Shown here one piece after another: positions 1 to 16,324 of a stretch of 26,231 nucleotides of DNA. Each line of letters begins with the position of its first letter. Positions within the stretch are counted from its first letter, which is position 1. The position numbers and the translations under genes are program-made. The notes beneath the pieces were generated by a model. That model saw only the letters and a program-made list of their open reading frames with translations. It ran no database searches and was not told the DNA's origin. Source of the stretch: a virus; the IMG/VR virus record IMGVR_UViG_3300011737_000031, positions 1 to 26,231 of that record; one strand, 5' to 3'.

Positions 1-1383
1 TTATAGATTCCAAGCGATTTCTACAGTATCCCCGTTGACATATATCTGTTTTATTAGCTTTTGAACAATAGCTTGTCTTTCGGGAAATTCAGCCGTTAAT
101 AAATCGAGTGAGTACTGTTTTAAATCGTCTTCACTTATCATATTTGTCTTTTTCTTCTCTTGGGCTACTTTCTTCCTGGTGAGTTCTAACTTTTCTTCTT
201 CTAATGCTTGAAATCTTTCAGCTAGCTTATTCTTATCCATTTTTTTAATGGTGTACAGATCAATTAATCGTCCTTCCTTGTCATCTATTTCTCTGAGTAA
301 TCTATCGTAGTCGACTAACTCCATTTCCTGATTAATAAAGGACTTATCAGTGATCATGTTGTTTATTCTATCCACTATTAAAGCTTCTAAGTTTTTTGAG
401 TTCCAATTTTTATTCGTGCATTTCTCATCATATTCAGCATGATACCTTCTTGCACGACACAAGTAATATCGGTACTTTTTTCCTCTGTCAGTACTGGTGA
501 AAGTGACGTAATTTTCTCCGCAGCAACCACACGTTATTAATCCAGTAAAAAGACTTTCTTTTGCTTTATTCGCATTTCTGCCTTTGTTTCTTGTTAATAG
601 CTCCTGGACTCTCTCAAACTGATCTTCAGAAATAATTGGTTCATGCTTACCAACATAATACTCACCTGCAAAACTTACATACCCGCAGTACAATCTATTG
701 TGTAAAATATCATGATATCGTCGGAACCTCCATACTTTGTATCCTAGTTCTTTTAATCGGTTCTGGACCTTAGTAATGGAGAGATATTGCTCGTATAAAT
801 CATATGCAAGTTTAATATGCTGTGCTTCATCTTTTTTTATTTCTAAATTCCCGTTAACTCGAGCATACCCTGCAGGGTCGTAATCTCCTCCGGATGTTCT
901 ATATCCATTTTCAGCACGCTTAATATGACCCATTCTCATACGCTCTGCAATAGTCTCTCTTTCAAGTTGAGCGAATACAGATAAAATACCTATCATAGCT
1001 TTTCCGAACGGTGTGGAAGTGTCTAGCGTCTCTGTAATGGAAACAAAATCCACATTATTCTTTAAAAAATGTTCTTCTATTAAATCAAGTGTATCCCTTT
1101 GAGAGCGTGATAGCCTGTCCAACTTATAAACCACTACAGCATCTACTTTATTTACGTCTTGTAGCATTCTCTGCAGGGCTGGACGGTCTGTATTTGATCC
1201 GGAATAACCAGGATCAATATAAACATCGTAAATGCCCCATCCCTTTGCCTTACAGTATGCTTCGATTCTTTCTTTTTGAGACTCAATACTGTAGTTTTCA
1301 ACTTGTTCTTGGGTACTAACCCGGATATACACCGCCACCTGCATTATTTCTTCTTTCTTATCTTTCTTTTGACGGACCAACAC
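1..1383 (-). CDS. int: Large serine recombinase (phage integrase)
   Basis: N-terminal resolvase-type catalytic domain (VAVYIRVSTQEQ, YKLDRLSRS). Cys-rich recombinase/zinc-ribbon region (CGCCGENY...YYLC) and a C-terminal coiled coil. GTG start at 1383 is preceded by GGGAGGAG at about 5 nt. The stop codon is at bases 1-3. Confidence 0.93.
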   Translation of the reverse strand: MLVRQKKDKKEEIMQVAVYIRVSTQEQVENYSIESQKERIEAYCKAKGWGIYDVYIDPGYSGSNTDRPALQRMLQDVNKVDAVVVYKLDRLSRSQRDTLDLIEEHFLKNNVDFVSITETLDTSTPFGKAMIGILSVFAQLERETIAERMRMGHIKRAENGYRTSGGDYDPAGYARVNGNLEIKKDEAQHIKLAYDLYEQYLSITKVQNRLKELGYKVWRFRRYHDILHNRLYCGYVSFAGEYYVGKHEPIISEDQFERVQELLTRNKGRNANKAKESLFTGLITCGCCGENYVTFTSTDRGKKYRYYLCRARRYHAEYDEKCTNKNWNSKNLEALIVDRINNMITDKSFINQEMELVDYDRLLREIDDKEGRLIDLYTIKKMDKNKLAERFQALEEEKLELTRKKVAQEKKKTNMISEDDLKQYSLDLLTAEFPERQAIVQKLIKQIYVNGDTVEIAWNL

Positions 1384-1401: not shown

Positions 1402-1425
1402 AAAAGGAGAGCCGTCGCTCTCCCC
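1402..1425 (-). terminator. Candidate intrinsic terminator between the repressor and integrase genes
   Basis: On the - strand, GGAGAGC-GACG-GCTCTCC (7-bp GC-rich stem, + coordinates 1406-1423) is followed by TTTTG. It lies 20 nt after the repressor stop codon. Confidence 0.5.
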
Positions 1426-1442
1426 GATGATTAAACATCTAG

Positions 1443-2036
1443 CTAGAAATTTAATACTACTTTTTTTAATCTTCCAATGATAAAGCTTTCGTTGGTATTA
1501 TCTACTATTCTAGGTGGGTATTTAGGATTTTCACTCTGAAGGACCAACTTGCCGTCGGAGTAGTAAACTCGTTTTAAGACTGCTTCTCCATCTAACCATA
1601 CGGCCGCAATTTCTCCACTTTCTACTGTTGATTGCTTTCTGATAAGTAGTAAGTCTCCATCAAAAATCCTTGCGTTGATCATGCTGTCACCTTTGGCACG
1701 TAAGTAGAAATATTCTCCTCCATTTAACCAAGATTTTGGCGTATCCTCATATCCTTCGATATCTTGGTATGCAATAGCTCCATTTCCGCAGCTTATCGCT
1801 CCTACGATTGGAAGCTTCACCATCGATTCAACCTTTTCTACACTTTCATCTGCAAATATTGCATCTATATCAACATTGTATGCAGCTGATAATTCTCTTA
1901 TTGTATCTAGGCTTGGTCTTCTTTTTTCATTCTCGTAATGAGAATACGTCTGCTTGCTGACTCCAATCTTCTTTGCAACTTCTTCTTGGGTCCAGCCTTA
2001 TATCTTTCTAAGCTCTCTCAATTTTTCCCCGTACAA
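1443..2036 (-). pseudogene. CI/LexA-like repressor (XRE-type HTH plus S24 peptidase domain) interrupted by an in-frame TAA at codon 13
   Basis: The track ORF 1443..1823 encodes only the S24 autopeptidase half (GDSM...KR). The same frame continues upstream as MYGEKLRELRKI*GWTQEEVAKKIGVSKQTYSHYENEKRRPSLDTIRELSAAYNVDIDAIF, a typical HTH_XRE. The TTG start at 2036 lies 8 nt after GGAGGTG. The TAA is the complement of 1998..2000. The length 1443..2036 is 594 nt, so it is in frame. Confidence 0.85.
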
Positions 2037-2200: not shown

Positions 2201-2407
2201 ATGTCTTCATCAAGCATAGTAGAAGCGAAAAGAAAGTTACTAAAGTTAACGCAGGAAGAAATTGCAGCAGATCTGAAAATATCCAGACAGTACTACAACG
2301 CTATTGAGAATTTTAAAAGGGAGCCTTCTGTTGAGCTGGCTAAAAGGATAGCAGATAAGCTGGAGTTGGATTGGACCATTTTTTTTACTTCTGTAGTCAA
2401 CAATTAG
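2201..2407 (+). CDS. Cro-like XRE-family HTH regulator
   Basis: 68 aa with an HTH_XRE signature (LTQEEIAADLKISRQYYNAIENFKREPS). It is divergent from the repressor. SD AGAGGAAGTGA lies upstream. Confidence 0.8.
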   Translation: MSSSSIVEAKRKLLKLTQEEIAADLKISRQYYNAIENFKREPSVELAKRIADKLELDWTIFFTSVVNN

Positions 2408-3398: not shown

Positions 3399-3547
3399 TT
3401 AGCAAAGTAAATGTTTGGTACATGACGGAAGCAGAAAGATTAGCTTATATCAAAAAGCATCCGATTGTTCCAACTAAAAAAGCTAAAGTTGCTGTTTTTT
3501 CTAATATCTATTCATATGGAGAACGTGCAAAAAAGGATAAAAAATAG
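3395..3547 (+). CDS. Small hypothetical protein (50 aa, basic C-terminus)
   Basis: GTG start lies 5 nt after GGGAGGTGAGG. It is coupled to the preceding ORF. Confidence 0.45.
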   Translation: MISKVNVWYMTEAERLAYIKKHPIVPTKKAKVAVFSNIYSYGERAKKDKK

Positions 3548-3620
3548 GACCCTCACGCCAATAAGGGTCCAAGAAATTATGACTTATTAATACTATATCA
3601 CATGAGAGGAAGAAATATAG

Positions 3621-4103
3621 ATGAATTTTACAGTAACAGTTGATTTATCACCAAAATTTGAAAAAGCAATTCTTTTATTAGCATCCGTTTTAGGGGGACA
3701 AGCTGCTCAACCGTTACAGGGAGAAGGTCCTGCAAAGGTACAAGATGCACCAGTAAATAATGTTACACCTATTCAGCAACCGACACAACATGCACCACTG
3801 CAACAACCTGTACAGCAACCAGTATCTGAGCAACCGCAATATCAACAGGCTCCTCCTGTTCAGCAGCCACCTGTGCAACAGCAACAACAGTCTGCAGTAA
3901 CACCTGGAGGAGTTCCAACAACTGCACCTGCTTATAGCATGGAGGATTTAGCTAGAGCTTCCACTCAATTAATGGATGCTGGGAAACAGCAGGACCTTTT
4001 AAACCTATTGGCTCAGTTTGGAGCTCAATCCTTAATGCAGGTACCTCAAGAGCAATACGGGGCATTTGCTACGAAATTACGTGAATTAGGTGCAAAAATA
4101 TGA
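3621..4103 (+). CDS. Hypothetical replication-module protein with a long Q/P-rich low-complexity centre
   Basis: Track ORF with SD GAGAGGAAG upstream. Its stop overlaps the next ATG (ATGA). The central ~70 aa are dominated by Q, P and V (PIQQPTQHAPLQQPVQQPV...QQQQQ). Confidence 0.75.
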   Translation: MNFTVTVDLSPKFEKAILLLASVLGGQAAQPLQGEGPAKVQDAPVNNVTPIQQPTQHAPLQQPVQQPVSEQPQYQQAPPVQQPPVQQQQQSAVTPGGVPTTAPAYSMEDLARASTQLMDAGKQQDLLNLLAQFGAQSLMQVPQEQYGAFATKLRELGAKI

Positions 4104-5275
4104 GTGGTAATATCGCGCATTCCGAACGGTCTCATGCGCTATTATCGGCTAGTGCTTCTAAGCGTTGGCTAGCTTGCACTCCAAGTGTAAGGCTCGAAGA
4201 GCAGTTTCCAGATTCAACTTCTGTGTATGCGGAAGAAGGGACACTTGCCCATGAGATTGCCGAGTTGAAGTTGAGAAAACAATTTACAGAGCCTATGAGT
4301 AAAAGTACCTTCACTCGTCGACTCAACAAAATGAAAAAGCATGAGTTGTTCCAAGATGAAATGCTGCGTCACACAGACACTTACTTGGATTATCTAAAAG
4401 AATTAACGATTGGAATGTCCTCATTGCCTTATGTAGCAGTGGAGAAAAGGTTGAACTATAGCGATTATGCTCCTGAAGGATTTGGAACAGTCGATTGCCT
4501 GATTATAGGAGGGGAAACACTTTACATTACAGATTTTAAATACGGAAAAGGTGTTGCTGTTGATGCCGAGGACAATCCTCAAATGAAGTTATACGCGTTA
4601 GGAGCTTACCTGGAGTATGGATTCTTGTATCCTATTAAAAATGTTCATCTAGCAATCATTCAACCTCGTTTAGATAGTATTTCAGAATACGAGCTTTCTC
4701 TTGCTGATTTACTAGCATGGGGTGAAGAGATTAAGCCAATAGCACAAAAGGCTTTCGCTGGAGAAGGTGAATTTGTCCCAGGAGAACATTGCAAATTCTG
4801 TAAAGCAAAAGCACAGTGCCGAGCACGTGCAGAAGAGTTTAGTGCATTAGCTGATTTTACGGCTCTTAAACCGCCTTTACTTTCAAATGAGGAAGTTGGC
4901 CAAATGCTAGAAAAGGGGCAGCATATTGAAGCATGGATAAAAGCCCTTAAAGAGTACGCTCTTACTGAAGCATTAAAAGGGAATGAGATTGCTGGCTGGA
5001 AAGCTGTTGAAGGTAGAGGAACGCGCAATTATGTGGATATCGATAAAGCCTTTGATCACCTCAGAGTGAATGGTATCGATGAAGCTGTCTTATATGAGCG
5101 TGTACCATTAACCGTTCCTAAATTAGAAAAAGAGTTAGGTAAAAAAGAGTATAAGAGTTTACTAGAAGAGCCAGGACTTGTTGTAAAAACTTCAGGTAAA
5201 CCAACACTTGCACCTGCAGGTGATAAAAGACCAGCTGTAACACTAAATCCTGATGCATCGGAGGACTTTAAATAA
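4100..5275 (+). CDS. PD-(D/E)XK nuclease, DUF2800/Cas4-RecB-like, with a predicted 4-Cys Fe-S cluster
   Basis: Nuclease motifs VDCLII, ITDFKYGKG (D-x-K) and QMKLYALG (QxxxY). One N-terminal Cys (WLACTP) plus a C-terminal CKFCKAKAQC (CX2CX5C), as in Cas4/AddB. It occupies the usual position at the head of a DUF2800-DUF2815-PolA module. Confidence 0.87.
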   Translation: MSGNIAHSERSHALLSASASKRWLACTPSVRLEEQFPDSTSVYAEEGTLAHEIAELKLRKQFTEPMSKSTFTRRLNKMKKHELFQDEMLRHTDTYLDYLKELTIGMSSLPYVAVEKRLNYSDYAPEGFGTVDCLIIGGETLYITDFKYGKGVAVDAEDNPQMKLYALGAYLEYGFLYPIKNVHLAIIQPRLDSISEYELSLADLLAWGEEIKPIAQKAFAGEGEFVPGEHCKFCKAKAQCRARAEEFSALADFTALKPPLLSNEEVGQMLEKGQHIEAWIKALKEYALTEALKGNEIAGWKAVEGRGTRNYVDIDKAFDHLRVNGIDEAVLYERVPLTVPKLEKELGKKEYKSLLEEPGLVVKTSGKPTLAPAGDKRPAVTLNPDASEDFK

Positions 5276-5385
5276 TGGGCGAGATAGCTGAAATGATAAT
5301 AAATGGTCTCTTATGTGAACAATGCGGTTCTTTTATCGATGACGAAGAACCAGGCCATCCAAGAAAATGTGAGGACTGTGATTAA
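5275..5385 (+). CDS. Mini zinc-ribbon protein (36 aa, ...CEQCG...KCEDCD)
   Basis: Two CxxC pairs. TAATG overlaps at both ends (5273-5277 and 5383-5387). It is below the track cutoff. Confidence 0.5.
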   Translation: MGEIAEMIINGLLCEQCGSFIDDEEPGHPRKCEDCD

Positions 5386-5474
5386 TGGGAGACATTGCAG
5401 ATTATCACGTTGATCAATATACCTCAGGTAGATGGGGTATGCCAATAAACCAAACAAAAAGGAGAAATGAAAAC

Positions 5475-6218
5475 ATGTCAAATCCAACTCGAATCGTAAC
5501 AGGTGAAGCAAGATTAAGCTATGTAAATCTATTAACTCCAAGAGCAAGACAAGATGGTGGAGAAGCAAAATACAGCGTAACAATCCTTGTACCAAAATCG
5601 GATGTACAGACGAAACAACGTATCGATGCTGCCATCGATGCAGCAAAACAAATTGGTAAAGATAAAAAATGGAACGGTGTGATTCCTCCGATGGTTGCCC
5701 TTCCTGTCTATGACGGTGACGGGGTAAAACCTTCTGACGGTATGCCATTTGGTCCAGAGTGTAAAGGTCACTGGGTATTCAGTGCATCATCTAAGGCTGA
5801 TCAACCACCTAAAATTGTGGATGCTAACCTTAATCCAATCGTAGATCCAACAGAAGTATATAGCGGAATGTACGGCCGCGTAGCTGTTAACTTTGCACCA
5901 TATGCAGCACAAGGGAAAAAAGGTATCGGTTGCTATCTATCTACTAATGTGCAAAAAACACGTGACGGTGAGCCGTTAGGTGCGGCAGCTCCAGCTGCAG
6001 CTGATGATTTCGGTGGAGGAGCTCCACAGCAACCAGCATACCAACAACCGCAATACCAACAGCCACAGTATCAACAACCGGAACCAAATATTCAAATGCC
6101 TTATGGTATGCAAGGACAACCGCAACAGCCTGCACCTGGTCAATACCAACAACCACAAATTGACCCGATTACTGGACAACCAATTAACAACGGTAACGGT
6201 GGCGTGTACGGAATATGA
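5475..6218 (+). CDS. DUF2815-family ssDNA-binding-like protein with a Q/P-rich C-terminal tail
   Basis: The family-typical N-terminus MSNPTRIVTGEARLSYVNLL starts at ATG 5475, 8 nt after AAAGGAG. The track ORF's extra 30 aa (from 5385) have no such support. The protein follows the DUF2800 gene, as is usual for this module. Confidence 0.8.
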   Translation: MSNPTRIVTGEARLSYVNLLTPRARQDGGEAKYSVTILVPKSDVQTKQRIDAAIDAAKQIGKDKKWNGVIPPMVALPVYDGDGVKPSDGMPFGPECKGHWVFSASSKADQPPKIVDANLNPIVDPTEVYSGMYGRVAVNFAPYAAQGKKGIGCYLSTNVQKTRDGEPLGAAAPAAADDFGGGAPQQPAYQQPQYQQPQYQQPEPNIQMPYGMQGQPQQPAPGQYQQPQIDPITGQPINNGNGGVYGI

Positions 6219-8197
6219 TTAGAAGTTTAAACATCGATATTGAGACTTATTCATCGGTGGATATTAAGAAGTCTGGGCTGTACAAATACGTACAGTCTCC
6301 GGACTTTCAGATACTACTTTTCGCTTATTCCGTTAATGGCCAACCGACAAAGATTGTGGATTTGGCTACAGGGGAGCGCATTCCTTTTGAGATTCATCAA
6401 GCTTTAATGGATCCAATGGTAACAAAGCACGCATATAATGCTGCTTTTGAGTGGTATTGTCTTTCCAAGTTTTTGAGATTACCTGTTCCAGCTAATTGGT
6501 TGAAAGAATGGCGCTGTACGATGTTTCACGGTTTGTATTGCGGATTTACTGCAGGTCTTGGTCCAACAGCAAAAGCTATGGGGCTTCCACAAGATAAACG
6601 CAAAATGAGTGTTGGTACTTCTTTAATTAAATTATTTTGTACTCCTACGAAGCCATCTAAGAAGAATGGAAATCGTACAAGAACCCTGCCACACCACGAG
6701 CCAGAAAAGTGGGAACTATTTAAAGATTATTGTGTTCAGGACGTTGAGGTAGAAAAGGAAATCGAAAGTAGATTATCCAGTTTTCCTATACCTGCGGCTG
6801 AACAAAAGCTTTGGGAATTAGATCAACAGATTAACGCTTTTGGTGTTCGTGTAGATCAACAGCTAATCGATGGAGCTTTGTATATAGATGATTTAGCAAC
6901 TGCAACGCTTACGGAAGAAGCTATAAAAATTACTGGGTTAGCTAATCCAAATAGTTCTCAACAGCTGACAAAATGGCTAGCTGATAAAGGATTAGAAGTA
7001 GAGAATTTGCAGAAGGATACTGTTACTAACCTCCTTGATTCTACAGAAGGAGAAGTCAAAAGAATGCTAGAGATTCGCCAGGAGCTTTCTAAAACGAGTA
7101 CAAAAAAATATGTGGCCATGGAATCAGCAGTTTGCGATGACGGGAGGGTACGAGGTTTACTGCAGTTTTACGGAGCTAATAGAACCGGCAGATGGGCGGG
7201 CAGATTGGTTCAAGTGCAGAACCTTCCGCGTAACTATCTCGAGACTCTAGGGCACGCCAGAGATTGTGTTAAAGAGAAGAAAATAGATGCTTTGAAATTT
7301 GTTTATGGGAATATCCCTAATACTCTTTCTGAATTAATTAGGACTGCGTTTATACCGAGCGAGGGAAACGTTCTATTGATATCTGACTTCTCTGCAATTG
7401 AAGCAAGGGTTATAGCATGGCTAGCTGGAGAACAGTGGCGGTTAGACGTATTTAATACGCACGGAAAAATATACGAGGCTTCGGCTTCTCAAATGTTTGG
7501 AGTGCCTTTAGAAAGAATAAAGAAAGGAAATCCTGAATACGATCTTCGCCAAAGAGGAAAAGTCGCTGAACTGGCATTAGGATATCAGGGCGGTCCATTT
7601 GCTCTCGAGTCTATGGATAGAGATAAGGTTTTAAATCCCTCTGAGTTACCGGATATCGTAAGACGCTGGAGATCCTCCAGTAAGAGAATTGTGGACTTAT
7701 GGTATTCACTAGAGAATGCAGCACTTTCTGTTATGAGAACAGGGCAACCTGCAGGTGTTCGGGGATTAATTTTAGCTCGAGAGAGTGATATTCGAAATGG
7801 GTTAGACTTTTTAACTATTACTCTCCCAAGTGGACGAAAGCTATTTTATGTTAAGCCGTTTCTATCAGAAAATGATTTTGGGAAGGAAGCGCTTCATTAC
7901 TTTGGTCTTAATCAGACTACAAAGAAATGGGAGAAACAATCCACTTACGGCGGTAAATTAGTCGAGAACTGTGTACAAGCAATTGCTCGAGACTGCTTAG
8001 CAGTAACACTGAAACGATTAGCTGTATTGGGATATCAAACTGTCATGCACATTCATGATGAAGTGGTGCTAGACGTGCCAAATAATCAAGCAGACTTGGA
8101 TATGGTCGCTTCAATAATGGGGACTCCAATTGGATGGGCTCCTGGATTACCGCTAACTGCAGATGGTTTTCTATCTGAATATTACAAAAAAGATTGA
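6215..8197 (+). CDS. Family A DNA polymerase with an N-terminal 3'-5' exonuclease domain
   Basis: Exo I DIETYS; motif A LISDFSAIEARV; motif B RQRGKVAELALGYQGG; motif C HIHDEVV. Its ATG overlaps the upstream stop (ATGA). Confidence 0.93.
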   Translation: MIRSLNIDIETYSSVDIKKSGLYKYVQSPDFQILLFAYSVNGQPTKIVDLATGERIPFEIHQALMDPMVTKHAYNAAFEWYCLSKFLRLPVPANWLKEWRCTMFHGLYCGFTAGLGPTAKAMGLPQDKRKMSVGTSLIKLFCTPTKPSKKNGNRTRTLPHHEPEKWELFKDYCVQDVEVEKEIESRLSSFPIPAAEQKLWELDQQINAFGVRVDQQLIDGALYIDDLATATLTEEAIKITGLANPNSSQQLTKWLADKGLEVENLQKDTVTNLLDSTEGEVKRMLEIRQELSKTSTKKYVAMESAVCDDGRVRGLLQFYGANRTGRWAGRLVQVQNLPRNYLETLGHARDCVKEKKIDALKFVYGNIPNTLSELIRTAFIPSEGNVLLISDFSAIEARVIAWLAGEQWRLDVFNTHGKIYEASASQMFGVPLERIKKGNPEYDLRQRGKVAELALGYQGGPFALESMDRDKVLNPSELPDIVRRWRSSSKRIVDLWYSLENAALSVMRTGQPAGVRGLILARESDIRNGLDFLTITLPSGRKLFYVKPFLSENDFGKEALHYFGLNQTTKKWEKQSTYGGKLVENCVQAIARDCLAVTLKRLAVLGYQTVMHIHDEVVLDVPNNQADLDMVASIMGTPIGWAPGLPLTADGFLSEYYKKD

Positions 8198-8206
8198 GGT
8201 GTAAAT

Positions 8207-8626
8207 GTGCTAGAGTTGAAGAATTTTAATGGTGAAGCTTTAAAAGCCGAGATGAAGAAAGCAAAGGCTACGAAAACGATGCTTCCTAAAAGTGTAGATG
8301 CTGTATATGGAAAACTTAAAAATCTAAGTAATTTGGCAGAAAAGCATCGTCAAAATAATAAGTTACGGTTCATGTATTCATCTAAAGAAACTACGCCCGT
8401 TAAGGTTGGGGAAATAACAATCAACTACAAAATTTATAAAAAGCTCATTTCAAAGTTAAAAGGATTTGAAATTTCTACGGAGATTAAAAATAACGTTTTG
8501 GTTGTTCAGTACGAGAAAATTGATTCTAAGGTAAAAGGGCGCGCATTCCTTGATGATATCTCTCATTATTTTAAAGACTTTAAACATGTCCCTGTGGCGG
8601 AATTAAGAAATGGCCAGCAAACGTAA
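8207..8626 (+). CDS. Hypothetical protein (139 aa)
   Basis: Track ORF. GTG start lies 5 nt after TGAGGTG. No domain recognised. Confidence 0.6.
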   Translation: MLELKNFNGEALKAEMKKAKATKTMLPKSVDAVYGKLKNLSNLAEKHRQNNKLRFMYSSKETTPVKVGEITINYKIYKKLISKLKGFEISTEIKNNVLVVQYEKIDSKVKGRAFLDDISHYFKDFKHVPVAELRNGQQT

Positions 8627-8753
8627 ACGCCAGGCAAGATGGTACCTGTTATTCAGAATGGAAGATGGCCAAAAAGTATATATCTATGAACCTTTGAAAA
8701 AAGGGGAATTGAATTCTCGTCTCCGTAAAGGTTGGAAATGGGTGAGAATGTGA
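8610..8753 (+). CDS. Possible small basic protein (47 aa, MASKRKRQARWYLLF...)
   Basis: This ORF fills the gap between 8626 and 8753. Its stop overlaps the next ATG (TGATG). The SD is weak, so confidence is low. Confidence 0.3.
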   Translation: MASKRKRQARWYLLFRMEDGQKVYIYEPLKKGELNSRLRKGWKWVRM

Positions 8754-9511
8754 TGGATAAACAGCAAAAGAAAGCAGCCAGGATAAAAATAGGACTACTA
8801 TTGGATGATCATTGCGATAAGTGCCCCAAGAAAATATCTTCTCAAACCAGTCCGAATCAACGTGAAAAAATATGTAAAGGATGTCCTGTTTTTGATGAGT
8901 TGCAGTATTTAGGAAAAGTCATCGATCAACAAACTACCGATAAGAAAGAAGGGAAATTAATGCCTGTTGAATCTGCGTTTTTTATGCCATTTGATGAGTA
9001 TTTCAAACTTAAGGATCTCGGAATGATGGATAAAGATATTGCATCTCGGAAGGGTGTACCTAAAAGCACTTTTGCAAATTGGAAATTTAAAAATCGTGAG
9101 AGATTAAACGAATTAAAGAAAAAACGTGATCAGAAAAATACCGTATCGGAAGAAAAAGTTGAATTGATTACACAATTTGAGCATTCTAAACCAAAAGCGC
9201 CTCCATGTCCACCAATGTCAGATTGGGAACGGAAATATACCCAATTAGAAGTAGACTACAAAGCATTGGTTACTAAAGCCGGAGAAATGGAAAGAGAATT
9301 TAAAAACGAAATTGGTGTTCTGAAGAGAAAGCTAGATGAGGCTGAATTTGTCGATGGGCGTGATGAAATAAATTCATTAAAATCAAACGAATCGATTCTT
9401 CATCATGAGATATGTGTTCAGCGTGAATATATTAGCTGTCTGGAAAATGACTTATCGGCGCTTCAGGCAGAAGCAAAAGCGATGAGAGACCTACTCCGAA
9501 TTAAATTGTAA
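8753..9511 (+). CDS. Zn-finger / HTH-like / coiled-coil protein (function unknown)
   Basis: CDKCPKK...CKGCPVFDEL Cys4 motif. HTH-like segment DIASRKGVPKSTFANWKFKN. The C-terminal ~100 aa have heptad-like, charged, coiled-coil character. The ATG at 8753 is preferred over the track TTG at 8732. Confidence 0.6.
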   Translation: MDKQQKKAARIKIGLLLDDHCDKCPKKISSQTSPNQREKICKGCPVFDELQYLGKVIDQQTTDKKEGKLMPVESAFFMPFDEYFKLKDLGMMDKDIASRKGVPKSTFANWKFKNRERLNELKKKRDQKNTVSEEKVELITQFEHSKPKAPPCPPMSDWERKYTQLEVDYKALVTKAGEMEREFKNEIGVLKRKLDEAEFVDGRDEINSLKSNESILHHEICVQREYISCLENDLSALQAEAKAMRDLLRIKL

Positions 9512-9550
9512 ATAATTATTACGAAGGAGTGGACGAATGCAGTGGAGAAA

Positions 9551-9691
9551 ATGAGATTTCATTGGGAAGACGTAACTGGAAATAAAGGTTCTTTCACAGT
9601 AGAAGCTTCGACTGTTGAAGCGTGCATCAAATCTGCCGAAAACGAAACTCGTGGAGAAGGTGTATGGATTACTGATTACTATTCTATTTAA
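9551..9691 (+). CDS. Small hypothetical protein (46 aa)
   Basis: Open frame between 9511 and 9732. Its ATG overlaps the stop of a 5-codon mini-ORF that has a strong SD. An in-frame GTG at 9542 is an alternative start. Confidence 0.4.
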   Translation: MRFHWEDVTGNKGSFTVEASTVEACIKSAENETRGEGVWITDYYSI

Positions 9692-9731
9692 TATACAGTT
9701 CAAAACTTATCCGCAGAAAGGAGAATCAAAA

Positions 9732-10016
9732 ATGGGCGATGAAACAAAATTAAAATGGGCTGACAGTTTAAGAGTTGGTATTTTACTAGACATCGATGAC
9801 GAACGTAATCGTCAGAACCTTAAGTGGGGCAGACAACGCCACGATAATGGTAAATGGCTTCAAATATTGGTGGAGGAAGTGGGAGAAGTTGCCCAAGCTA
9901 TGCAAAAAGAAAACGGCTGGGGGAAGGATACCGATGCTTCCGATTTATATACAGAATTGATTCACGTTGCAGCTGTTGCAGTGTCTATTGCAGAGCAGGT
10001 AAGGGAGGAAAAGTAG
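9732..10016 (+). CDS. MazG-like nucleoside triphosphate pyrophosphohydrolase (small all-alpha type)
   Basis: ERNRQNLKWG...WLQILVEEVGEVAQA...LYTELIHVAAVAV matches the MazG EExxE helix pattern. ATG at 9732 lies 8 nt after AAAGGAG. The track's N-terminal extension (9615) overlaps the previous ORF. Confidence 0.6.
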   Translation: MGDETKLKWADSLRVGILLDIDDERNRQNLKWGRQRHDNGKWLQILVEEVGEVAQAMQKENGWGKDTDASDLYTELIHVAAVAVSIAEQVREEK

Positions 10017-10298
10017 TTGGACCAGTTAAAGATTGGCGATTGGGTAAAAGTTAAAGCGATTTTGGGATTGTACTTTTATGGATATGTTACGAGATTATGT
10101 GGAACTTTAGTAGACGTGAAGATTACTAAAGGACTCACATCTAAACTTACTGTCGAACGGAATAAAGTGCAGCCTTGGATAACAGAAGTACAGTCTGTTG
10201 ATTATGATAACTTGATTGATCTTGCCCTTTCAACTCATGATGAAGAATGGTTTAGGGAGCTTACCAGGCAAAAAGAATTATTGGTAAAGGAGGGATAA
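10017..10298 (+). CDS. Hypothetical protein (93 aa)
   Basis: TTG start directly after the upstream stop, preceded by GGGAGGAA. No domain recognised. Confidence 0.6.
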   Translation: MDQLKIGDWVKVKAILGLYFYGYVTRLCGTLVDVKITKGLTSKLTVERNKVQPWITEVQSVDYDNLIDLALSTHDEEWFRELTRQKELLVKEG

Positions 10299-10301
10299 AG
10301 G

Positions 10302-11276
10302 TTGAAGCCGTTAGAGAAGTTGGGGCAGTTACCAGGAATGATAGATGTAAAAAAGCAAGTAGAACAAATAATTCAGTTTAATAGAATTTCTAAATTGCGT
10401 GCAAGTCAAGGTCTTAAAACAGAGAGTCAATCCCTGCACTTAATATTTACCGGCAATCCCGGTACTGGGAAAACAACTGCAGCACGTTTGATTGGCGAGG
10501 CATTTGCTTCCTTAGGGATTCTTAAATCGAATCCGGATCGAAACGATAATTCTTTTAACAATCAAAATAATAATCAGAAGCAAAGACAAAAGAAAGCTCG
10601 TATTCCTTTTGTAGAGATTCATCATGCCGATGTTACCAGTAAATTCGTAGGCGCTGCTGAAAAAACGATATTAGAGAAATTCAAACAGGCTCGTGGAGGA
10701 GTACTTTTTATCGATGAAGCTTATGCTTTTATAGCCGGAGAAACAGAACACAAATCAGGTGAAAAGGTTATTGCAGCCATTGTCCAACAGATGGAAGATA
10801 TGCGCGAAGAAGTAATGGTAATTGCTGCAGGATACGCGAATGAAATGGATAATTTCTTAGATTCTAATCCTGGGTTACGGTCTCGCTTCTCTAATTCTGT
10901 CGCTTTTCCTGATTATTCCGTCCCTGACATGGTTGTGATCGCTCAAAAGATGTTAGATGATAGAGACTATTTTGCTGATAATGATTACCTTAGAGAATTG
11001 GCTAACCGGTTATGGGTGGAAAAAGATAAAAAGGGTTTTGGTAATGCGCGTACAGTAAGGAATATCGTAGAGCAATCTATCCGGATGCAATCGGCAAGGG
11101 TTGCTTATATGGATAACCCTTCTCGTCAAGATTTAATGTTGCTAACAGTATTTGATATAGAAAAAGCTAATGATAAAGCCCTAACTGAAAAAGAAATACT
11201 GTTGAAGTCTTTATCCCAGATACAAGGGAGACTTCTTGAAATTGATTTAATGGAACTATTATCTAAAAGTGGATGA
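10302..11276 (+). CDS. AAA+ ATPase of the SpoVK/CbbX subfamily
   Basis: Walker A GNPGTGKTT and Walker B VLFIDEAY. Subfamily signature VIAAGYANEMDNFLDSNPGLRSRFSNSVAFPDYS. TTG start lies 7 nt after AAAGGAGGG. An N/Q-rich insertion lies between Walker A and B (approx. nt 10524-10601). Confidence 0.87.
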   Translation: MKPLEKLGQLPGMIDVKKQVEQIIQFNRISKLRASQGLKTESQSLHLIFTGNPGTGKTTAARLIGEAFASLGILKSNPDRNDNSFNNQNNNQKQRQKKARIPFVEIHHADVTSKFVGAAEKTILEKFKQARGGVLFIDEAYAFIAGETEHKSGEKVIAAIVQQMEDMREEVMVIAAGYANEMDNFLDSNPGLRSRFSNSVAFPDYSVPDMVVIAQKMLDDRDYFADNDYLRELANRLWVEKDKKGFGNARTVRNIVEQSIRMQSARVAYMDNPSRQDLMLLTVFDIEKANDKALTEKEILLKSLSQIQGRLLEIDLMELLSKSG

Positions 11277-11309
11277 TGAAAAGTTAAAAGTGGAAGGTGG
11301 TGTTACAGC

Positions 11310-13733
11310 ATGATTTATGACAGACAGTTAACGATATCAGCTGCAGGAAGCAGAAAGGCAACCGAGTGGCCATCGCAAACATTATATTGGTCCGAGCTAG
11401 TAGATCGGTTACGTACGGCTGTTAGGGGAACAGAAACCCTAGCCGAATATATGAAGCTCCCTAAGTCTCGTCAAGATGAGCTAAAGGACGTTGGTGGATT
11501 TGTAGCCGGTACCTTAGCAAACAACCGAAGAAAGGCTTCCAATGTAACAGGGAGAGATATCATAACGCTCGACTTGGATAATATTCCTGCAGGTGGAACA
11601 GCAGACGTGCTACGTCGTCTCGAGGCATTAGGGTGCGCCTATGCAACTTACTCCACCAGGAAGCATGAGGAGGGCAAGCCACGTTTACGTGTGCTTGCTC
11701 CTTTAAATCGAACAGCTTCTGCAGATGAGTACGAGCCATTAGCTAGAAAACTATCTTCTATTATTGGTATGAGCTTTGCGGATCCTACCACGTTTGAAGC
11801 TTCTCGGTTGATGTATTGGCCTAGTTGTTCTTCCGATAGTCAGTATGTGTTCCAATATGGTGATAAGCCTTTCCTAGATGCTGATGGTCTATTAAGCCTT
11901 TATAACGATTGGAGAGATATTCAAGAGTGGCCAGAAGTACCTGGAGCTAGTCAATCGCACGTACGAATGGCAGCAAAACAAGGAAACCCTACAGAAAAGC
12001 GCGGTGTTGTTGGAGCTTTCTGCAGACAATACGATATCCACACAGCCATCGAAACTTTTTTACCCGGTGTTTATACGCCAACAGATGACGGTAGCGAGCG
12101 ATATACCTTTATAGGAGGTTCGACGGTTGGTGGAGCTGTTATTTATGATGATGGGTTATTTCTTTACTCTCACCATGCGACAGATCCCTGCAGTGGCCGA
12201 TTAGTAAATGCGTTTGACCTAGTGCGATTGCACAAATACGGAGAATTAGACGATGAAGCAAAGCCGGATACTCCGGTAAACAAATTGCCATCATTTACAA
12301 CAATGGCTGCTTTTGCATTAAATGATGCTGGTGTAGCAGCTATTTTAAACCAGGAACGATATGAAAGAGCTGTAGCCGATTTTGGAGACTCACCGGTGGG
12401 ACAACCAGGATCCCCGGAAGGTGGGGACGATTTAAATTGGATTCAAAAATTAAAAATTAGTCCTTCAACTGGTACCCCTTTAAAGTCTATCGAAAACGCA
12501 TTGGTTGCATTAGAACATGATCCGCGTTTAAAAGGTCGGATTAAGATGGACTCCTTTGCAGATTCTTTAATGGGAGTTGGGCCTTTACCGTGGGTGCCGA
12601 GAGACAAGGAAGAAGTGTTCAGATGGACAGACACAGACGATGCAGGATTGCGGAGTTACCTAGAAAAAATTCTTAATTTCCGCGTGAAAGATATCGTAAA
12701 TGACGCGCTCATTTTGTGTGCTGCAGCTAATCAATTCAATCCAGTTGTGGACTATCTTAATGCGTTACAGTGGGACGGAGTGAAAAGGCTAGATACTTTA
12801 TTTATCGAGTACTTAGGTGCTGCAGATACTCCTTACACAAGAGCAGTGACGAGAAAATCGTTTACGGCAGCCGTTGCAAGAGCGATGAGTCCAGGCATTA
12901 AATACGATACAATGCCGGTTATTACCGGTCCTCAAGGTTTCGGAAAAACAACGCTTATTCAGAAGATGGGTAAGGCTTGGTTTACGAATAGCATTGAGAG
13001 TTTCGAAGGAAAAGAAGCAGCTGAACTGTTACAAGGCGTATGGCTGGTTGAGATCGGTGAAATGAGTGCCTATAACAAGTCAGATGTACAGACTATTAAA
13101 GGGTTCCTCAGTAGAACAGAAGACCAGTATCGTGCTGCCTACGCACGTAAAACAGAGAAGCATCCGAGACGATGTGTATTTTTTGGTACAAGTAATAGAA
13201 GTGATTATTTAAGAGATCCGACAGGTGGTAGACGTTTTTGGCCAATCGATGTTGGTATCCAGCAACCTACTAAACTAGTATTTCGGGATTTAGATGCAGA
13301 AGTGGAGCAGTTATGGGCGGAAGCCGTGATGCATTGGCGATTGGGCGAGTCCCTTTTCTTAACTGGGGAATTGGCAGAAGAAGCAAGACGGCAACAGGAA
13401 GGCCACGCAGAGCAGGATCCACGTGAGAGTCTTATTCGTGATTTTGTGGAAAGAAAAGTACCTGCAGATTGGCAGAAGAAAGATATTGCAACTAGAAGAT
13501 TGTACTGGTCCGGAGAGTTTGGAAGGGCAGAAACAGATACAGAAGAAAGGGATCGTATTTGTGCTGCCGAGGTTTGGGTGGAATGTCTAGGAGGCGATAT
13601 CCGGAATATGAGAAGGATGGATACAATCGCCATCAATGATGTTTTAGAACAAATTGAGGGATGGAAAAAGCAGAAGAACCCACATCGGTACGGTCCCTAT
13701 GGGAAGGTAAAAGGCGGATATATAAGGGTTTAG
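11310..13733 (+). CDS. Bifunctional primase-polymerase / VirE-family (P4-like) helicase
   Basis: 807 aa. N-terminal prim-pol-like region with ITLDLDN. C-terminal VirE-type P-loop ITGPQGFGKTT followed by WLVEIGE. This is the usual partner of the DUF2800/DUF2815/PolA module. Confidence 0.88.
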   Translation: MIYDRQLTISAAGSRKATEWPSQTLYWSELVDRLRTAVRGTETLAEYMKLPKSRQDELKDVGGFVAGTLANNRRKASNVTGRDIITLDLDNIPAGGTADVLRRLEALGCAYATYSTRKHEEGKPRLRVLAPLNRTASADEYEPLARKLSSIIGMSFADPTTFEASRLMYWPSCSSDSQYVFQYGDKPFLDADGLLSLYNDWRDIQEWPEVPGASQSHVRMAAKQGNPTEKRGVVGAFCRQYDIHTAIETFLPGVYTPTDDGSERYTFIGGSTVGGAVIYDDGLFLYSHHATDPCSGRLVNAFDLVRLHKYGELDDEAKPDTPVNKLPSFTTMAAFALNDAGVAAILNQERYERAVADFGDSPVGQPGSPEGGDDLNWIQKLKISPSTGTPLKSIENALVALEHDPRLKGRIKMDSFADSLMGVGPLPWVPRDKEEVFRWTDTDDAGLRSYLEKILNFRVKDIVNDALILCAAANQFNPVVDYLNALQWDGVKRLDTLFIEYLGAADTPYTRAVTRKSFTAAVARAMSPGIKYDTMPVITGPQGFGKTTLIQKMGKAWFTNSIESFEGKEAAELLQGVWLVEIGEMSAYNKSDVQTIKGFLSRTEDQYRAAYARKTEKHPRRCVFFGTSNRSDYLRDPTGGRRFWPIDVGIQQPTKLVFRDLDAEVEQLWAEAVMHWRLGESLFLTGELAEEARRQQEGHAEQDPRESLIRDFVERKVPADWQKKDIATRRLYWSGEFGRAETDTEERDRICAAEVWVECLGGDIRNMRRMDTIAINDVLEQIEGWKKQKNPHRYGPYGKVKGGYIRV

Positions 13734-13738
13734 AAAGT

Positions 13739-13898
13739 GTCTACTTTCATGTCTACTTTGTACTGATTTTGTCTACCTTGAAAAATTTGTAAATGTCTAC
13801 CTTGTCTACCTTGAAAAATAGAAAGTAGACGAGAAAGTAGACAGGGTAAACCCTTGATATATCTATACTTATATTACTTTGTCTACCTTGTCTACTTT
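13739..13898. repeat. Iteron array: nine copies of GTCTACYTT (7 direct, 2 inverted); candidate phage replication origin
   Basis: Direct copies at 13739, 13751, 13771, 13795, 13804, 13881 and 13890. Inverted copies (AAAGTAGAC) at 13822 and 13834. The 16-mer GTCTACCTTGAAAAAT occurs twice (13771 and 13804). A very AT-rich tract follows at 13899-13935. Confidence 0.8.
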
Positions 13899-14025
13899 AA
13901 ATCTATATAAATATAAAAATAAAGGAAATAGAGAGATTAGGCGTATATAGCGTATGCCTAAACCGCCTGTTTTTATTTCATATACGTGTATGTGAAAGAA
14001 AGTATACACATTAGTTTTTGGAGGT

Positions 14026-14328
14026 TTGAAAATGCGAGAAAAAGATATCGAGGAATACTTAAGAAAACAAGTAAAGAAAATAAAAGGCATTGCTTATAAA
14101 TTTGAATCGCCAGGAAACATTGGTGTGCCTGACAGATTAGTTCTTCTGCCAGGCGGACGAATATTCTTCATCGAATTAAAAGCACCAGGGAAAAAGCCTA
14201 GACCTAATCAAGTGCACCAGCAAAGAAAAATTGCAGAGCTAGGAAACGAAGTTTTAGTGATTGATAGTTTTCTAGGAGTGGATTTATTCATAGCAAGAGT
14301 TACAGGGAAAGCGAGTGGTGACCAGTGA
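14026..14328 (+). CDS. VRR-NUC domain nuclease
   Basis: GVPDRLVLLPGGRIFFIELKAPGKKPRPNQ shows the D...ExK PD-(D/E)XK core typical of VRR-NUC. SD GGAGG lies upstream. It is paired with an SNF2 helicase, as in many phages. Confidence 0.87.
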   Translation: MKMREKDIEEYLRKQVKKIKGIAYKFESPGNIGVPDRLVLLPGGRIFFIELKAPGKKPRPNQVHQQRKIAELGNEVLVIDSFLGVDLFIARVTGKASGDQ

Positions 14329-15698
14329 ACTTTACACCCCATAACTACCAAAGGTACTGCATAGAACGTGTTCTTGATACGCCTGCGCTTGGGCTGTTGT
14401 TGGATATGGGATTAGGCAAAACTGTAATCACTTTAACAGCAGTAAACGATCTAAAGTACAACCGTTTTGCCGTTAATAGAATTCTAGTCATTGCCCCAAA
14501 GAAAGTTGCAGAGTCAACATGGGTGAAAGAAGCAAGCAAGTGGGACCATCTTAAGCTATTGCGATTTTCGACTGTTTTAGGATCCCAAGCAAAGAGAATA
14601 AAAGCACTTAATACACCTGCAGATATCTATGTGATTAATCGAGAAAACGTACCTTGGTTGGTAGAATACTACAAGAATGCTTGGCCATTTGACATGGTAA
14701 TTGTAGACGAGTTTTCATCTTTTAAAAATCATCAGGCCAAACGATTTAAGTCTTTGAAATGGGTACGGCCACACATTAAAAGAATCGTAGGATTAACCGG
14801 AACGCCAGCACCAAACGGAATGTTAGATTTATGGGCGCAAGTTTATTTGTTGGATGGGGGAGAACGATTAGGAAAGACGATTACTGGCTTCCGAGAAAGA
14901 TATTTCGAACCGGATCAACGTAATCGAGATAGAGTCTTTACCTATGCACCCAAACAAGGAGCAGACGAACGGATCCAGCAATTAATTGGGGATATATGCG
15001 TATCCATGAAAGCTGAAGACTATTTAGAGCTTCCGGATATTGTTTTTAATACAGTACCAATCATCTTGGATAATAAGGCGGAAAAAGCCTACAACAAATT
15101 AGAAACCGAAATGCTTTTACAGGTGGATGAAACAACCATCGATGCAGGATCGGCAGCTGTATTAACTAATAAACTTCTCCAGCTGTGTAATGGTGCTGTG
15201 TATGATGAAGATAGGAATGTTGTTAGTATCCATGATTGTAAATTAGAAGCCTTTATGGAGCTAATCGAAGGATTAAACGGGAAGCCAGCGTTAGTGTTTT
15301 ACAACTTTCAACACGATAAGAACCGAATCAAAAAAGCATTGGCCAAAACAAATTTAAGAGTAAGAGAATTAAAGACTCCCCAGGATGAGAACGATTGGAA
15401 TAACCGAGAGATTGATATATTACTAGCCCATCCTGCTTCTGCAGCTTACGGATTGAACCTGCAGCAAGGTGGAAATCACGTTGTATGGTTTGGGCTTAAC
15501 TGGTCCTTAGAACTATATCAGCAAGCAAATAAACGTCTTCACAGGCAGGGGCAAACAGAAAAGGTAATCATTCACCATTTAACCGTTTCTGGCGGAGTCG
15601 ATGAGGACGTAGTTAGAGCTTTAGAAAACAAGACGAATACACAAGATGATTTGATGGCAGCACTTAAGGCAAGAATTGAACGTGTGAAGGGAGAATAG
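14325..15698 (+). CDS. SNF2-family helicase/ATPase
   Basis: Motif I LDMGLGKT, motif II VIVDEFS, motif III LTGTPAPN, motif VI QANKRLHRQGQ. The GTG start overlaps the upstream stop (GTGA). Confidence 0.92.
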   Translation: MNFTPHNYQRYCIERVLDTPALGLLLDMGLGKTVITLTAVNDLKYNRFAVNRILVIAPKKVAESTWVKEASKWDHLKLLRFSTVLGSQAKRIKALNTPADIYVINRENVPWLVEYYKNAWPFDMVIVDEFSSFKNHQAKRFKSLKWVRPHIKRIVGLTGTPAPNGMLDLWAQVYLLDGGERLGKTITGFRERYFEPDQRNRDRVFTYAPKQGADERIQQLIGDICVSMKAEDYLELPDIVFNTVPIILDNKAEKAYNKLETEMLLQVDETTIDAGSAAVLTNKLLQLCNGAVYDEDRNVVSIHDCKLEAFMELIEGLNGKPALVFYNFQHDKNRIKKALAKTNLRVRELKTPQDENDWNNREIDILLAHPASAAYGLNLQQGGNHVVWFGLNWSLELYQQANKRLHRQGQTEKVIIHHLTVSGGVDEDVVRALENKTNTQDDLMAALKARIERVKGE

Positions 15699-15700
15699 CA

Positions 15701-16246
15701 ATGAATACGAATGGGAAAAGCAATGAGGAATTGATGGACCACATTATCAAAGTTGCTTCTGAAACAGCCATTGACTATTACAAGAAGCGAGAAAAAGAAG
15801 AACGAAAAAAACGCGTAGATCGTCGTTTGCGAAATACACGGTTATTGTTAGAGAACTATAAAAATTTTAAAATACATTGTACAGAAAATGCTGTAAAGAT
15901 TGATCACCTATTGGATCCTGACGATTTCGAATTTCTTGAATATGGAGACCTGGTGATTGAATCAATTGTCAAAAGTAAAAAACGGACAATTTCTATGGTA
16001 GCATACTTAGACCACATGCTGGAAGTTTATCGAGCTATAGCAGATTCTTCCAACAAAAAAGAAGAGATAAGAAAGTATCATACTGTTCTTAAATATTATA
16101 TTTTGGACCCCAGAGTGGAAATTGAAGAGATAGCAAATGTCCACGGAGTAAGTGTAAAAACAGTTAAACGTGATTTAGACAATGCCGTTAAATCCATTGC
16201 TGCCTTGATTTTTGGAGTAGATAGTGTCAGATTCATAGATTATTAA
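15701..16246 (+). CDS. Late-gene transcriptional regulator, ArpU/RinA-like with a sigma-70 region-4-like C-terminal HTH
   Basis: It is the last gene before the terminase genes. The N-terminal RLLLENYKNFK motif resembles ArpU-family proteins. The C-terminal IEEIANVHGVSVKTVKRDLDNAVKSIAALIFG looks like sigma region 4.2. Confidence 0.65.
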   Translation: MNTNGKSNEELMDHIIKVASETAIDYYKKREKEERKKRVDRRLRNTRLLLENYKNFKIHCTENAVKIDHLLDPDDFEFLEYGDLVIESIVKSKKRTISMVAYLDHMLEVYRAIADSSNKKEEIRKYHTVLKYYILDPRVEIEEIANVHGVSVKTVKRDLDNAVKSIAALIFGVDSVRFIDY

Positions 16247-16264
16247 TTTGATTGCTAGATGTCC

Positions 16265-16293
16265 ATTGACTGGGTTTTGATAAAATGGTATTA
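16265..16293 (+). promoter_or_regulatory. Near-consensus sigma-A-type promoter with an extended -10
   Basis: TTGACT (16265-16270), a 17-nt spacer ending in TGG, then TATTAT (16288-16293). Confidence 0.6.
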
Positions 16294-16324
16294 TGATAAC
16301 ATAAAATAATTCTGAATACGGATT

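Follow-up and report, generated by a model that had tools for sequence, protein, structure and literature searches.

A private in-frame stop codon in the CI/LexA-type repressor gene of a Niallia circulans phage sequence: a putative repressor-null allele

Introduction

Has a temperate phage of Niallia circulans lost its repressor, or does its genome record merely contain a wrong base? The question is raised by IMG/VR record IMGVR_UViG_3300011737_000031, of which we analysed positions 1 to 26,231; this stretch of 26,231 nt is referred to below as the window. As read from its genes and relatives, the window is 26 kb of a predicted temperate siphovirus of Niallia (Bacillus) circulans of about 36 kb. 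Its repressor gene is interrupted by a TAA at codon 13. A sequence-only reading of this DNA had offered three explanations for the stop without choosing among them, namely a repressor-null derivative, a decaying prophage maintained in some other way, and a sequencing or assembly error. We have kept the sequence-error option, but we now give the three explanations unequal weights: we lean towards the null allele, regard an error as unlikely, and regard a silenced prophage as less likely still.

Results

The disrupted CI/LexA-type repressor gene lies at 1443–2036 on the minus strand and consists of 197 codons plus a natural TAG. It starts with TTG at 2036–2034, continues with TAC GGG GAA AAA TTG AGA GAG CTT AGA AAG ATA, and then runs into TAA at codon 13 (2000–1998). 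Past this stop the same frame goes on with GGC TGG ACC CAA GAA GAA, reads GWTQEEVAKKIGVSKQTYSHYENEKRRPSLDTIREL..., and stays open down to the TAG at 1445–1443. When the stop is replaced, the translation matches two Pfam domains, HTH_3 at residues 6–59 (profile positions 1–54 of 55, E = 1.3e-20) and Peptidase_S24 (PF00717) at residues 76–190 (E = 9.5e-30). This agrees with the claim of the sequence-only reading that a single codon is all that separates the gene from a complete CI/LexA-type repressor of about 197 aa. Since the HTH_3 match begins 5' of the stop and spans the TAA, the 12 upstream codons belong to the gene and do not form a chance open reading frame. The TTG at 2036, the Shine-Dalgarno (SD) sequence GGAGGTG and the in-frame TAA at 1998–2000 described in that reading were all confirmed on the minus strand, and its coordinates were accurate throughout. 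A terminator-like hairpin with a T run is found 3' of the repressor gene (1406–1425, minus strand).

All that the normal start can now yield is a 12-codon remnant (2001–2036, minus strand; M/L-YGEKLRELRKI), which corresponds to helix 1 of the HTH. The earliest ATG, GTG or TTG past the premature TAA is the ATG at 1823, with a weak SD-like AAAGG 8 nt 5' of it. It opens a residual ORF of 126 aa (1443–1823, minus strand; M72–F197), the gene caller's product P0155, which carries the S24 domain alone; the expectation that only the peptidase half would be left from this start was thus borne out. By alignment to E. coli LexA, the 126-aa ORF holds the repressor cleavage site C83-G84 (1790–1785), Ser118 (1685–1683) and Lys155 (1574–1572). 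As encoded, HTH and S24 domains do not stand on a single unbroken polypeptide, because of the TAA at codon 13. Judged by its domains, the gene belongs by descent to the LexA/CI S24 family, but as recorded it cannot encode the two-domain protein now. The gene should be annotated as a null allele (E13*) or pseudogene of the repressor, in place of "S24 peptidase".

Upstream of the TTG, the minus strand carries the SD GGAGGTG (2051–2045), a spacer of eight A residues (A8, 2044–2037), and a predicted repressor promoter made up of TTGACA (2090–2085), 17 nt, and TAAAAT (2067–2062). The SD, the promoter and the 12 codons before the stop match those of the intact relatives base for base. The spacer from SD to start is 6 nt long (A6 or GA5) in all 11 distinct relatives read at this position, and A8 occurs in the window only. 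In addition, a G at 2068, directly 5' of the −10 hexamer of the repressor promoter, is private to the window, with T in all relatives. The surroundings of the lesion had earlier been described as intact, a statement that needs correction, as both the change from A6 to A8 in the SD spacer and the change from T to G beside the −10 box fall in the repressor's expression signals.

The relatives' repressors are called from a GTG within the SD GGAGGTG, which gives proteins of 200 aa (MKKLYG...) in frame with the TTG, while the extra AA in the window spacer puts this SD-internal GTG out of frame with the TTG. Because the GTG shares bases with the SD and MYG opens the more distant homologues, we regard the TTG as the start actually used, and the relatives' 200-aa repressor annotations as probably three residues too long. 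With the TTG as the real start, we take the spacer change (10 nt vs 8) to be tolerable. We further observed a perfect 12-nt inverted repeat at 2032–2043 and 2111–2122 (TACAATTTTTTT / AAAAAAATTGTA), with arms 67 nt apart, which pairs the region of the repressor start codon with a site between both promoters. This repeat is A/T-rich, is extended by the private A8, and may be due to chance.

The context of an immunity region is present, with a divergent cro-like gene, facing promoters, repeated operator-like sites, and an integrase alongside. The cro-like gene (2201–2407, plus strand) runs divergently from the repressor gene and encodes an HTH_3 protein of 68 aa according to Pfam; its predicted promoter lies at 2132–2160 on the plus strand (TTGACA, 17 nt, TATTAT). 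A direct repeat of 19 nt is found once at 2086–2104, where it reads ATGTCGCCTCATAGTTGAC on the minus strand and overlaps the −35 of the repressor promoter, and again at 2164–2182, just 3' of the −10 of the cro promoter. These two copies, overlapping both promoters, are probably the operators of the repressor. The large serine recombinase, or integrase (1–1383, minus strand, 460 aa), is intact and shows 99.8% DNA identity to that of the related contig L012. An identical 68-aa Cro protein is present on at least 21 other contigs, and wherever the neighbouring genes were listed it adjoins an intact repressor of 197–200 aa.

Relatives of the repressor locus were gathered with a pattern carrying N at the variable base, run against viral, genome and metagenome collections, and by exact-protein look-ups. 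Of the 19 loci obtained, about 13 are distinct in sequence; they come from ENA, JGI, Logan, the N. circulans isolate assembly NPBO01000045.1 and the Bacillus MAG WTKE01000090.1. Most of them share 95–98% DNA identity with the window across the immunity region, the lowest value being about 89% over a wider int–cro stretch. Codon 13 is GAA (Glu) in every one of these approximately 13 distinct relatives, including Niallia circulans prophages inserted in comFA, and TAA in the window alone. As GAA stands in every relative sampled, the TAA is best read as a single G>T transversion (Glu13>stop) private to the window. Protein P0151 equals the read-through protein exactly, but with E13, and the intact P0001 is 97% identical to it.

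A broader comparison gave a similar picture. Among 58 homologues at 55–97% identity, the residue at codon 13 is E in 45, R in 6, H in 5, N in 1 and K in 1. It had been guessed earlier that K, R or E was lost at the broken codon, and E is indeed what all close relatives carry, as do those 45 homologues. Neither a split HTH/S24 pair nor a shared stop was seen among the 120 homologues listed, which are single proteins of 181–232 aa. In the 90% cluster, all 16 other members are single proteins, and the sole member of 126 aa is the window's P0155. A close homologue with the same stop or with a natural split, which the sequence-only reading had named as evidence against its view, was looked for and not found; all are single proteins of 197–200 aa. 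A megablast search against 50,697 GenBank phage records gave no match for the immunity region or for the other 22.7 kb, so that these records offer no close cultured phage whose phenotype could be compared.

When compared with five relatives (L010, L013, L009, L014 and L011), the repressor gene shows 13–15 synonymous codon differences, and the stop is the sole non-synonymous one. The absence of any other amino-acid change, against 13–15 synonymous differences, suggests that the repressor was under purifying selection until very recently. The earlier proposal that the lesion is recent is supported by this result. No relaxed constraint is visible in the alignment, and on this evidence the stop is either very recent or not real. 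Seven further substitutions in the repressor gene are private to the window, and all seven are synonymous. Six of them fall within 40 nt (1731–1770; repressor codons 89–102), and there are no private changes in the integrase or in cro. The changes at 1731–1770 probably form a small patch acquired by recombination with a lineage outside our sample, and since the seven synonymous changes look like such a patch, they are unusable as a clock. Between 2000 and 2068, three private changes occur in 69 nt, compared with about 0.6 expected at the regional rate, which is nominally unusual. Selection against repressor expression was considered for this cluster and rejected, since the in-gene private synonymous rate exceeds the intergenic one, leaving no evidence for anything beyond drift.

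The window is 91% coding, with tightly packed ORFs. Its replication module comprises a PD-(D/E)XK exonuclease, a Gp2.5-like ssDNA-binding/annealing protein, a family-A DNA polymerase, a primase-helicase and a SNF2-type helicase. The structural genes encode the small and large terminase, portal, head morphogenesis, scaffold and major head proteins, followed by small head-tail and tail ORFs, and a tape-measure gene starts in the window and runs past its end. All genes in the 26-kb window are intact save the repressor, and the last 10 kb or so (tail, lysis) lie outside it. P0155 is recorded once, on a JGI/IMG metagenome contig of 36,004 nt, a phage-sized contig of which the window thus makes up the greater part. 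Exact-protein look-ups with the 126-aa ORF, the DNA polymerase, the major head protein, the integrase and a 61-aa ORF returned no other contig.

The look-up with the exonuclease returned L020 only, a Logan contig of 2,832 nt from run SRR1748882 that is 100% identical to positions 3810–6641 of the window. From this identity, public reads of the exact window strain probably exist. The T allele at codon 13 is known from one consensus, and L020, the sole 100% identical contig, spans 3810–6641 only. Another contig, L018 (SRR1748663), is 97.5% identical in the repressor region and has GAA at codon 13. The run accessions of L018 and L020 fall in a range that we take to be that of the urban-surface (NYC subway) metagenome project; when the literature was searched for these run numbers, unrelated 8-digit accessions were all that matched.

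In the relatives L007–L011, the integrase module directly follows a shortened comFA (ComFA_N, 182 aa), 3' of degS-degU-degV. In L009, for example, the comFA fragment occupies 7223–7771 and the integrase 7803–9185, so that comFA ends 32 nt before the integrase stop. The flanking proteins of these comFA-inserted relatives are named as Niallia circulans in the source records. In these relatives, a large-serine-recombinase prophage therefore splits the competence gene comFA; the comK prophage of Listeria and the SPbeta/skin elements of B. subtilis come to mind as parallels. A full-text literature search found no paper on a comFA-inserted prophage. Other relatives (L012–L016, L003/L005 and L004) are phage-sized contigs (35–38.5 kb) that stop 32–41 nt beyond the integrase stop, which is the att site; NPBO01000045.1, a 38,514-nt contig of an isolate genome, is one of the contigs ending there. 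These ends suggest that the samples contain integrated as well as excised forms, and hence that the phage family is active.

We also observed that one int–repressor–cro module (>96% identical, with an identical Cro protein) occurs in combination with either of two unrelated replication modules. The first type (window, L001, L019) carries exonuclease/Enc34-type SSB/PolA and occupies 3500–16300 in the window. The second type (L007–L016) carries AAA_23/AAA_24/DEAD helicase/PriCT_2 primase 3' of cro. Both types co-occur in sample 3300080719 (L010 and L019). Judged from these gene orders, the sharing of int–repressor–cro is clear modular mosaicism.

Discussion

We favour, with moderate confidence, the explanation that the stop is a real and recent repressor-null allele in a lytically propagating variant of the clear-plaque type. 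What was found is what such a variant should display: a loss-of-function lesion unique to this genome, the wild-type and ancestral GAA in about 13 distinct relatives, and, within the 26-kb window, an intact rest of the genome; the reality of the T base and the phenotype are what we infer. According to this explanation, a G>T change would have turned Glu13 (GAA) into TAA in this genome, evolutionarily very recently. Translation from the normal TTG would then end after 12 residues, and the ATG at 1823 would yield at most an S24 fragment devoid of the DNA-binding domain. Without the HTH domain, the cro-side promoter would stay unrepressed. A phage that lacks a working repressor would be unable alone to establish or maintain lysogeny, and would be lytic and of the clear-plaque type. 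The intact ancestor is predicted to have bound its operators via the HTH and to have cleaved itself when RecA was active; since the cleavage bond and the Ser/Lys dyad align to those of LexA, the intact protein is, as far as these residues tell, a standard SOS-inducible repressor. By analogy with TP901-1, E13* should abolish repressor function, and a clear-plaque, non-lysogenising phenotype is to be expected.

The strongest alternative, which we nevertheless consider unlikely, is that the true sequence is GAA and the repressor intact, the T being a miscalled consensus base caused by low coverage or a strain-mixture bubble. The T allele is present in a single assembly only, and the stop has two further private differences no more than 70 nt away. 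In the rest of its sequence the read-through protein equals that of relatives that look functional, as expected if nothing were wrong. Moreover, the source is a JGI/IMG metagenome, and immunity regions that are 94–97% identical co-occur (L010 and L019 in 3300080719), which favours local mis-assembly. However, T at this site is found in no known relative, which rules out a chimeric path as its origin, and the remaining private changes in the repressor are all synonymous, as in evolutionary change and not random noise. The assembly is also unlikely to be generally error-prone: its 50 coding homopolymer runs (>=6 nt) contain zero frameshifts, the ORFs are full length across 26 kb, and the window proteins align with PHROG profiles over almost their whole length. 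As a matter of general knowledge, substitution errors in a short-read consensus are far rarer than natural repressor-null variants.

Were the contig an integrated prophage and not a phage in replication, the repressor-null allele would have to be accounted for differently. One such account, to our mind improbable, is that the mutation is real and that the prophage is kept silent by a homoimmune repressor in trans or by a second defect outside the window, and is in early decay. Homoimmune helpers do exist, given that the int–cI–cro module is >96% identical on two replication types that co-occur in one sample. Many of the relatives' contigs end at the att site 32–41 nt past the integrase stop, which points to integrated forms in those assemblies, and the tail and lysis end of the genome lies outside the window. 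Yet every gene in the 26-kb window is intact and the repressor has no second amino-acid change, so that decay would have barely begun, and the window contains no second repressor gene. Both phage types appear, furthermore, to share the integrase and attB, which would make stable double lysogeny awkward.

A functional stop, acting through readthrough or recoding, or through a split whose S24-only product (M72–F197, from ATG 1823) has its own role, is very improbable: the 126-aa fragment does retain the site of cleavage, the Ser/Lys dyad and the domain for dimerisation behind a weak SD-like AAAGG, but in the aligned close relative L001 this motif is dictated by the codons for VEKVESM and is thus no adaptation, and none of the relatives has the same stop or a split arrangement. 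Recoding or suppression of TAA was rejected because TAA regularly terminates 14 of the 33 ORFs in the window, more than any other stop codon does, and because the window holds no tRNA or suppressor gene and no other interrupted gene. A naturally split HTH/S24 pair was likewise rejected, since the split is not conserved and the sole 126-aa protein is the window's own product. We attach hardly any weight to a further idea, in which the S24-only fragment (M72–F197) is a dominant-negative partner of the full-length repressor in homoimmune lysogens. Re-initiated at ATG 1823, it would keep the dimerisation surface and lack the DNA-binding domain. If true, such a fragment would break the immunity of resident relatives, and virulence would have been gained via a single nonsense mutation.

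Should the favoured repressor-null allele be real, the window would offer a natural snapshot of a temperate phage just turned obligately lytic, of mild interest for ecology and for those who seek lytic phages of Niallia/Bacillus circulans. Before the reads have been checked, the contig should not be counted among lysogeny-competent temperate phages. The lesion belongs to the ordinary, long-known class of cI-null mutations, and is new only as an instance in an uncultured N. circulans phage.

Comparison with known systems

E. coli LexA (PDB 1JHH, 7B5G) and the window repressor in its read-through form share a two-domain layout, with a DNA-binding N-terminus and an S24 C-terminus (MEROPS S24). 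The C-terminal domain of the window repressor aligns with LexA 74–191, which places C83-G84 on A84-G85, S118 on S119, and K155 on K156. S118 and K155 do not vary across 59 sequences, in which C83 and G84 are conserved to >=90%. In contrast, the N-terminus is a winged helix in LexA and an XRE/HTH_3 fold in the window repressor, and the cleavage dipeptide is Ala-Gly in LexA and Cys-Gly in the window repressor. The cleavage dipeptide of UmuD is also Cys-Gly. As in LexA/lambda-CI-type systems, the window repressor gene and a cro-like gene point away from each other, each behind one of two sigma-A-type promoters placed back to back; unlike repressors of that type, the window repressor has its frame broken at codon 13. 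The nearest cultured-phage repressor in a protein search is that of Geobacillus phage vB_GthS_PK5.2 (OP341629.1), any cultured match being at most 53% identical to the read-through protein. Residues 3–60 of the read-through protein also resemble the XRE-type HTH of ICEBs1 ImmR (PDB 7T8I; E = 5e-9), a likeness that concerns the DNA-binding domain only. ImmR is not known to have an S24 domain and is cleaved by a separate protease, ImmA.

To our knowledge, the CI protein of phage TP901-1 lacks an S24 domain, and TP901-1 CI and the window repressor belong to different repressor families. The TP901-1 and phiLC3 mutants are laboratory isolates of known phenotype, whereas the window allele is a metagenome consensus known from sequence alone. 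In the TP901-1 cI mutant C3, an early nonsense mutation led to full derepression, loss of lysogenisation and clear plaques, and in a clear mutant of phiLC3 the repressor gene likewise contains a stop codon (PMC4892519). Other clear mutants of TP901-1 carry changes in the cI promoter and SD (PMC4892519), and since such changes give clear plaques, the private spacer and −10-flank changes of the window are worth mention, although they are not more numerous than expected from drift. TP901-1 C3, the phiLC3 mutant and lambda cI mutants resemble the window allele in having an early repressor stop in a temperate phage that is otherwise intact.
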